Assembly (NCBI GenBank): GCA_965228435.1
Contig: OZ245818.1
Coordinates: forward strand, 6,841,518 to 6,905,517
Reading direction: 5' to 3'
DNA: 64,000 bases
Source of the DNA: Hoeflea sp.
GTDB taxonomy: Bacteria; Pseudomonadota; Alphaproteobacteria; Rhizobiales; Rhizobiaceae
A program made the translations under genes and the position numbers. The notes below the pieces were generated by a model. The model was not told the DNA's origin, did not search any database, and was given only the letters and a program-made list of their open reading frames with translations. Below, in pieces: positions 57,669 to 57,929 of this stretch (positions are counted from its first letter, which is position 1; each line of letters opens with the position of its first letter).

Positions 57669-57929
57669 ATGGCTTTCTTCCGACAAAAACCCCTGACGAT
57701 CGAGGCCATGCAAATCGGCATCGACACCTGGCCTGCCGAATTCTGGCAGGCGGTTTGCGACCAGAAAATCAGTTTGCACCGATGCGAGGACGGCAAGCTT
57801 TATGTGCTGGTCGAAGCCCCCGACGGACACATTCGCGGAAACTTTCGGGACTGGCTCATTCGGGACGTAGACGGAGCCTATCGCGTAGCCGCACCGGCAT
57901 CGTTCGAGTTGAGCTACGACGCCGCGTGA
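57669..57929 (+). CDS. Small hypothetical protein resembling a widespread phage protein family
   Basis: GGAG RBS, 86 aa. RQKPLTIEAMQ ... RDWLIRDVDGAYRVAAPASFELSY resembles the recalled phage pattern [11 protein letters not shown] ... [24 protein letters not shown]. Confidence 0.7.
   Translation: MAFFRQKPLTIEAMQIGIDTWPAEFWQAVCDQKISLHRCEDGKLYVLVEAPDGHIRGNFRDWLIRDVDGAYRVAAPASFELSYDAA

Follow-up and report, generated by a model that had tools for sequence, protein, structure and literature searches.

A small gene beside tRNA-Trp in Hoeflea sp. is, by its sequence, a captured and remodelled member of a common phage protein family

We analysed a 64,000-nucleotide stretch of a Hoeflea sp. genome (the window; contig OZ245818.1, positions 6,841,518 to 6,905,517 of the forward strand), and within it an open reading frame (ORF) at 57669-57929 that lies between a gene for an RTX-repeat protein and a tRNA-Trp gene. 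Judged by its sequence, the product of this small ORF is a divergent chromosomal member of a known, uncharacterised phage family. On the phylogenetic evidence the gene goes back to a single capture from a phage, because the chromosomal copies form one clade (99% bootstrap support) nested among phage genes. The pattern of codon change marks it as a real gene, fixed in its lineage and under purifying selection. On balance, and by a little, we incline to the view that the small ORF is a domesticated phage accessory gene; that its product has been repurposed as a small stoichiometric binding module is a best guess of low confidence.

The small protein matched three PHROGs of unknown function (phrog_4502 at 2e-9 over residues 1-84, phrog_419 at 1.9e-8 and phrog_1810 at 7e-7). 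With tblastn, full-length matches at about 30-34% identity were obtained in 171 phage records, all annotated as hypothetical, from phages of Mycobacterium, Klebsiella, Gordonia, Bacillus and other hosts. A word-index search with the single protein found one 94%-identical relative only, an exhaustive phmmer search found 63 relatives, and a profile search found at least 7,999 clusters (90% identity) at E<=1e-3. P0016 (RHS), P0019 (DUF3011 repeats) and P0050 were also among the phmmer matches and were rejected as spurious, being sums of weak repeat matches. A family hidden Markov model (HMM) built from 117 members, with the window protein left out, scored the window protein at 53.0 bits (E 3.7e-17). 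The original prediction, made from the sequence alone, had likened the protein to a very common phage hypothetical family, and the PHROG matches, the HMM score and the phage records bear this out. Searches of Pfam, NCBIfam and PADLOC gave no match to the small protein.

Members of the family are about 85-95 aa long and share the consensus pattern RKKPVVIEA...GDWII...YPCKPDIF..TYE, with a canonical signature of R5-K-K-P-V-V-I-E-A, T50-L-E-G, G60-D-W, a block from E70, and T82-Y-E. The family has 38 columns with conservation of at least 80%; of these, the window protein keeps 16 (including P8, I11, E12, A13, G53, D61, W62, G69, P76, F79 and Y83) and replaces 22. The most conserved block of the family, from E70, reads AYRVAAPASF in the window protein; a few other family members also have x-R-V variants. 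The canonical conserved polar residues are E12, T50, E52, D61, E70, Y72, C74, K75 and D77, and the positions lost by the window protein include most of them. Since so many conserved positions have been replaced, most of the polar ones among them, it is unlikely that the window protein retains the ancestral activity.

We also looked at the domain architectures and distant matches of the family. Fusion partners of family members comprised Zn-ribbon-like tails and DUF6011, and gave no functional lead. One metagenomic protein of 180 aa (P0065) is a head-to-tail tandem duplication of the domain, with residues 1-87 and 90-180 both scoring >100 bits, which suggests that the domain may work as a dimer. 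Against the Pfam family PGDYG (PF14083), 92 of 119 family members gave weak matches (best E 6e-5), with bit scores of 13-19 where shown, below the gathering score of 27; the alignments seen placed the GDW...YPCKPD half of the domain on profile positions of about 2-60. The window protein itself had no match to PF14083 at E<=1.

To place the chromosomal copies among the phage genes, we used a nearest-sequence profile and a neighbour-joining tree. By profile score, 13 clusters stand apart as a tight subclade: each reaches at least 121 bits, and no other sequence exceeds 69 bits. In the tree, the clade of four chromosomal sequences is sister to phage P0003 (93%) and nested inside a phage subclade, and a conspicuously long branch leads to the window clade. 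The original prediction had proposed a host-captured phage-type gene and called for a phylogeny; this part of its interpretation stands. The subclade members on long contigs are all in clear phage surroundings. P0003 is part of a replication module, together with an SNF2 helicase, a DUF2800/PD-(D/E)XK nuclease, DNA polymerase A and a protein of the DUF5906 family. P0182 has a primase-DnaB gene on one side and the small terminase subunit on the other, P0183 is found amid small early genes near a Dam-type methylase, and P0187 between an Acb2_Tad1_hairpin-domain gene and the terminase region. A more distant chromosomal locus, L007, encodes a 58% identical protein (P0002) at the same site, in the order RTX remnant, small ORF, tRNA-Trp and tuf (92% nucleotide identity). 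P0002 is intact and still reads the canonical motif as GEFYPCRPEVF.

The gene is narrowly distributed and well kept. When one genome per GTDB species was scanned, just two assemblies, both of Hoeflea sp., proved to encode the protein (94% and 91% identical), each at the site that it has in the window. The exact SecE sequence of the window is present on 10 contigs, on each of which the 86-aa ORF comes after the 588-aa RTX gene. Eleven copies of the small ORF gave nine DNA alleles and seven protein variants, with no stops or frameshifts in any copy. Among the nine alleles, 21 codons vary synonymously only and 12 change the residue, mostly conservatively; it is this ratio, together with the lack of stops, that argues for purifying selection. 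At three loci the small protein is identical, with 8-10 synonymous and 0 non-synonymous differences. The ratio of non-synonymous to synonymous change (dN/dS) for the small ORF between the window and L005 is 0.12, and that for the RTX gene is about 0.04.

The features of the locus are as follows.
55220..55417, minus strand: secE, the left edge of an insert of ~2.5 kb, followed by nusG and rplKAJL
55848..57614, plus strand: RTX/DUF4114 gene, 588 aa, calcium-binding, RTX repeats, with a conserved start MSVDTD at 55848
57615..57668, plus strand: spacer of 54 bp from the RTX stop to the small ORF
57659..57662, plus strand: Shine-Dalgarno sequence GGAG, 6 nt 5' of the small-ORF ATG
57669..57929, plus strand: small ORF, ATG at 57669, TGA at 57927-57929, 86 aa
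57964..58039, minus strand: tRNA-Trp (CCA), its 3' end facing the small-ORF stop, 34 nt apart
58218..59393, minus strand: tuf, a housekeeping gene, right flank

These coordinates agree with the original description of an 86-aa ORF with its own ribosome-binding site, 54 bp past the RTX gene and beside the tRNA-Trp 3' end. The computed product is acidic, with a mass of 9.8 kDa and a pI of 4.9. Both the GGAG and the start codon are kept across the Hoeflea orthologues, and the more distant L007 has GAGGG ahead of a GTG start. Starting from another ATG, at 57657, the product would be 90 aa long, but that start lacks a Shine-Dalgarno sequence; the 86-aa form is the choice of the gene callers in all relatives. 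For the RTX gene, the mechanically called ORF from 55677 (TTG, 645 aa) is too long by 57 codons, and the 588-aa gene is called at every orthologous locus.

The RTX gene and the small ORF thus make up a plus-strand insert between tRNA-Trp and secE, flanked by minus-strand housekeeping genes (tuf, tRNA-Gly and tRNA-Tyr on one side; secE, nusG and rplKAJL on the other). At annotated orthologous loci, rpoB, rplL/J/A/K, nusG and secE lie on one side and tuf, a SpoU methylase, EipA and PDH E1 on the other. As originally predicted, there are no further phage genes nearby: the flanks of orthologous loci with precomputed Pfam annotation hold neither phage nor integrase genes. The 3' end of a tRNA gene is a classic integration site, and here this position is the only feature suggestive of an integrative island. 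On the tRNA-Trp side, the sequences of relatives become conserved again from about 5 nt beyond the tRNA 3' end. No att-like direct repeat of the tRNA end was found within 55200-58100, and the G+C content of the insert showed no anomaly relative to its flanks. Within the insert, G+C falls to about 0.485 at 55400-55850, from secE to the conserved RTX start at 55848, which is probably a divergent promoter region. The window also holds a second tuf copy (30939-32114, minus strand), with 99.4% nucleotide and 100% protein identity to the copy at 58218-59393 (minus strand); this near-identity is consistent with gene conversion between the paralogues. Several relatives (L001, L007, L096 and L098) appear rich in insertion sequences (IS). 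In L001, which is on the same contig as L094, Transposase_mut, IS66 and DruA elements are inserted between secE and the RTX gene (L001:3981-7905), and two IS1595 copies lie between the small ORF and tuf (10454-12437); the RTX gene and the small ORF are both intact despite these insertions.

We predicted the fold with AlphaFold2, using the family alignment, for the window protein (mean predicted local distance difference test score, pLDDT, 89.9) and for the canonical member P0066 (pLDDT 93.1). Both models are a single compact beta-rich domain with the order strand, helix, five strands, helix. In a Foldseek search of BFVD, the window model matched phage proteins labelled uncharacterised or 'PGDYG protein', with template modelling (TM) scores of 0.6-0.78 and probability 1.00. 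One structural match in BFVD, A0A8S5S940, is annotated QueE; at 372 aa it is far longer than the family domain. In the Protein Data Bank (PDB; entries to April 2026), neither model had a match (best E 0.42 and 0.34, TM <=0.40). The non-significant top matches leaned to OB, Tudor and SH3-like small barrels, which is an impression only. PDB searches by sequence and by family profile returned nothing below E=1. The RKKPVVIEA...YPCKPDIF family therefore appears to be abundant, without a Pfam model of its own and without a solved fold detectable by Foldseek.

The fold comparison bears directly on the other part of the original interpretation, in which the protein might be a member of the fold of Tad2-type sponges, phage proteins that sequester immune signals. 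Neither DUF2829 (PF11195) nor PF13876 matched the window protein or 119 relatives at E<=1. Alignment of the family profile to Tad2 (PDB 8V3E sequence) with hhalign gave a probability of 0.15%, and BLASTP against Tad2 gave E 7.7. No Tad2 chain was among the Foldseek top 50, though the PDB copy that was searched holds 8SME and 8V3E. The terminal P-x-x-F-E-x-x-Y motif that had been attributed to Tad2 is not a feature of real Tad2 sequences: those from the PDB (8V3E, 8SME and others) end ...LAEDWxIVE (also seen as LAEDWNIVE). On none of these tests, nor in topology, is a Tad2/Acb4-type sponge identity supported; of the original interpretation the host capture survives and the Tad2/Acb4 fold does not. 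Nor did the family resemble Lockin A-C or Sequestin A-B in their N-termini, which could be read from published cloning primers.

We examined the gene neighbourhoods of the family in 80 viral loci (+/-5 kb each), with ORFs called by a crude longest-ORF heuristic. No constant neighbour was found across these loci. A DnaB helicase was at position -1 in 8/80, a replication-organiser-like gene at -2 in 8/80, and terminase or structural genes were present in others. For a Pfam census of neighbours we used 57 sequences, namely 56 dereplicated -1/+1 neighbours of <=200 aa and the upstream gene of L093, with ORFs judged spurious removed. The most frequent family was Acb2_Tad1_hairpin (PF24729), with three members. 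A local iterative search found Acb2-like ORFs in L071 (4781-4990, at -1), L080 (5269-5637, at +1) and L039 (4451-4702, at -2), and nowhere else within +/-5 kb of the viral loci. L093 (7744-8294) is a fourth Acb2_Tad1_hairpin case, at -1 with a 4-nt stop/start overlap. As a rough estimate, with ~15 other ORFs per locus, the chance of lying within +/-2 genes is ~0.27 and that of all four doing so ~0.005, on small numbers and with no genome-wide background. The association is weak; it is suggestive, and may reflect an anti-defence island. Two other family members neighbour a QueD-like PTPS (+1; L035:4377-4841) and a Vut_1/YhhQ-type transporter (+1; L060:5259-5744). Such queuosine or 7-deazaguanine neighbours may link the family to modified-base modules.

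A history that would account for the locus can be outlined. An ancestor of this Hoeflea lineage would have taken up a single copy of a small gene from a phage into the interval between tuf and secE-nusG, on the 3' side of tRNA-Trp. The closest relatives of that gene are found where tailed phages keep their replication and early accessory genes. It may have brought the RTX/DUF4114 gene with it, or the RTX/DUF4114 gene may already have been resident beside the insertion point, and the remaining parts of the mobile element would then have been lost. After fixation, a burst of change in one lineage would have replaced most of the conserved polar positions, with purifying selection since. The product would be an acidic cytoplasmic protein. 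Like most proteins of this size, it would probably act through stoichiometric binding and not as an enzyme, and probably as a dimer or a larger oligomer; the grounds for this are the lack of a match to any catalytic family in Pfam, NCBIfam or PADLOC, the confident fold models and the tandem duplication in P0065. Its binding partner in Hoeflea would presumably differ from that of the phage ancestor.

Several points weigh against this account. The step to a binding module is an inference, and the canonical polar residues would suit a site for a small ligand, or a catalytic one, just as well. The window model, being built on the family alignment, says nothing on the survival of a pocket at the remodelled residues. 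The synonymous divergence (dS) from L007 is saturated (2.1), and the accelerated change fits relaxed and positive selection alike. The sole evidence of transcription is one contig of 229 nt from an environmental metatranscriptome run (X23; depth 3.3, 2 mismatches), which covers 57671-57896 only and could be DNA carry-over; RNA runs of a related species gave no coverage. Finally, a functional link between the RTX gene and the small ORF is possible, since the two are conserved, point the same way and are closely spaced.

That link is the substance of one alternative, in which the small protein would be an accessory factor of the RTX/DUF4114 protein (a cytoplasmic chaperone, regulator or immunity-like partner) and would be co-transcribed with it. 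Co-transcription is possible, because the 54-bp gap has no terminator-like site; no sigma-70-like site was found in the spacer either, but the promoter scan told little, since it returned 0 promoter-like sites over 3.1 kb. The pair is kept together in every genome of the clade with both genes under purifying selection, and the adjacency predates the split from L007. Yet in L007 (5845-7950), insertions of the IS66 and PRiA4_ORF3 types have left just a C-terminal piece of 156 aa of the RTX gene beside an intact small ORF. Neither the 80 viral loci nor the four nearest phage contexts contain an RTX neighbour, so that RTX linkage is confined to the Hoeflea-related lineage. The small protein has no similarity to known RTX accessory proteins in Pfam or NCBIfam, and the metatranscriptome contig spans the small ORF with no coverage of the RTX gene. 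The neighbour itself had been called an adhesin, with the small protein possibly linked to its control. Its Pfam domains are HemolysinCabind (PF00353, 1e-59) and DUF4114 (4e-8), with no adhesin domain, and control of an adhesin or a general linkage to RTX genes fits poorly with phage relatives that lack an RTX neighbour and a small ORF that outlasts the RTX gene in L007. Nothing beyond adjacency ties the small protein functionally to the RTX protein, and we consider an accessory role unlikely.

A nucleotide-signal binder is similarly improbable. Here the phage family would sequester a defence signal in the manner of a sponge, and the Hoeflea copy would bind a messenger of the c-di-GMP type or be an anti-defence leftover. 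The four independent phage loci with a family member <=2 genes from an Acb2_Tad1_hairpin gene speak for it, with that family leading the census of immediate neighbours, and anti-defence genes do cluster in phages, 17.8% of them within 1 kb of another (PMC11724313). The family is of small proteins with strongly conserved polar residues, and the tandem duplication points to an oligomeric state; in known sponges, which are oligomeric too, the binding pockets lie at subunit interfaces (10.1101/2025.07.12.664507). Set against this, Acb2-like neighbours occur in only 3/80 viral loci, where replication, terminase or unknown genes mostly take their place; there is no likeness to Tad2 or Acb4 in sequence or fold, no significant Foldseek match in the PDB, and no resemblance to the Lockin or Sequestin N-termini. 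Even if the family were a sponge, the window copy, with 22/38 conserved positions lost, would probably no longer bind the same ligand, and purifying selection argues against a mere leftover. A broader form of the idea, that the RKKPVVIEA...YPCKPDIF family is a new counter-defence class, perhaps one whose members bind a small ligand (a signal or a modified base) as oligomers, and the Hoeflea gene a rare domestication with a ligand site rebuilt for a cellular role, is prompted by the Acb2/Tad1-hairpin adjacency, the QueD, YhhQ and QueE associations and the invariant polar residues; we regard it as quite unlikely. Least probable of all is that the ORF is decaying and functionless, left behind at tRNA-Trp by an old prophage or island. 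In favour of this are the position right at a tRNA 3' end, the lone phage-type gene and the degenerated family motif, but the frame is intact in all 11 copies with a pattern of purifying selection, the ribosome-binding site is conserved, and the gene is kept in IS-ridden relatives whose neighbouring DNA is disrupted. These sequence data largely refute decay.

If the domesticated-gene account holds, the locus would be a clean case of a single phage accessory gene captured, remodelled and kept by a bacterial lineage, in a gene neighbourhood (tuf - tRNA-Trp - secE - nusG) that is among the most conserved. Such exaptation is already known, and the locus alone is of modest interest. The phage family, in turn, is among the commonest of small phage proteins, and a structure and a defence screen of a canonical member could annotate thousands of genes. 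The Hoeflea copy would then serve as a natural 'altered-site' variant for comparison with canonical members.

Among known systems, the closest counterparts are the phage families phrog_4502, phrog_419 and phrog_1810, which share full-length homology, size and predicted fold with the window protein. The window copy differs from them in being chromosomal, single-copy and fixed, with 22/38 conserved positions replaced and a long branch. PGDYG (PF14083), an uncharacterised family of bacteria and phages for which a literature search found no paper, has lent its name to some relatives of the small protein in public records, and is at most a distant superfamily relation. Tad2 (PF11195; 8SME, 8SMF, 8SMG and 8V3E), the anti-Thoeris sponge for gcADPR, was described by its discoverers as a tetrameric DUF2829 protein of 89 aa in which beta1-beta5 come after an N-terminal helix (10.1101/2023.05.01.538930). 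It is alike only in size, phage origin and mixed alpha/beta character: Tad2 begins with a helix and ends LAEDWxIVE, whereas the small-protein family begins with a strand and ends PDIFxxTYE. With Acb4, the anti-CBASS sponge for 3'3'-cGAMP (96 aa, PF13876), the small protein shares only being a small phage protein; Acb4 is built of three beta-strands between helices alpha1-3 on one side and alpha4-5 on the other (PMC11722364), in contrast to the six strands and two helices predicted here, and gave no Foldseek match. In evolutionary terms the nearest parallels are Apyc1 and NARP1/2, chromosomal homologues of phage counter-defence proteins that lie mostly outside mobile elements (PMC11724313). As with these, a mainly phage family has a stable chromosomal representative outside any recognisable mobile element. 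For Apyc1, the activity is known and the chromosomal form is common, whereas in the small-protein family the phage form is overwhelmingly common and the chromosomal clade is narrow.

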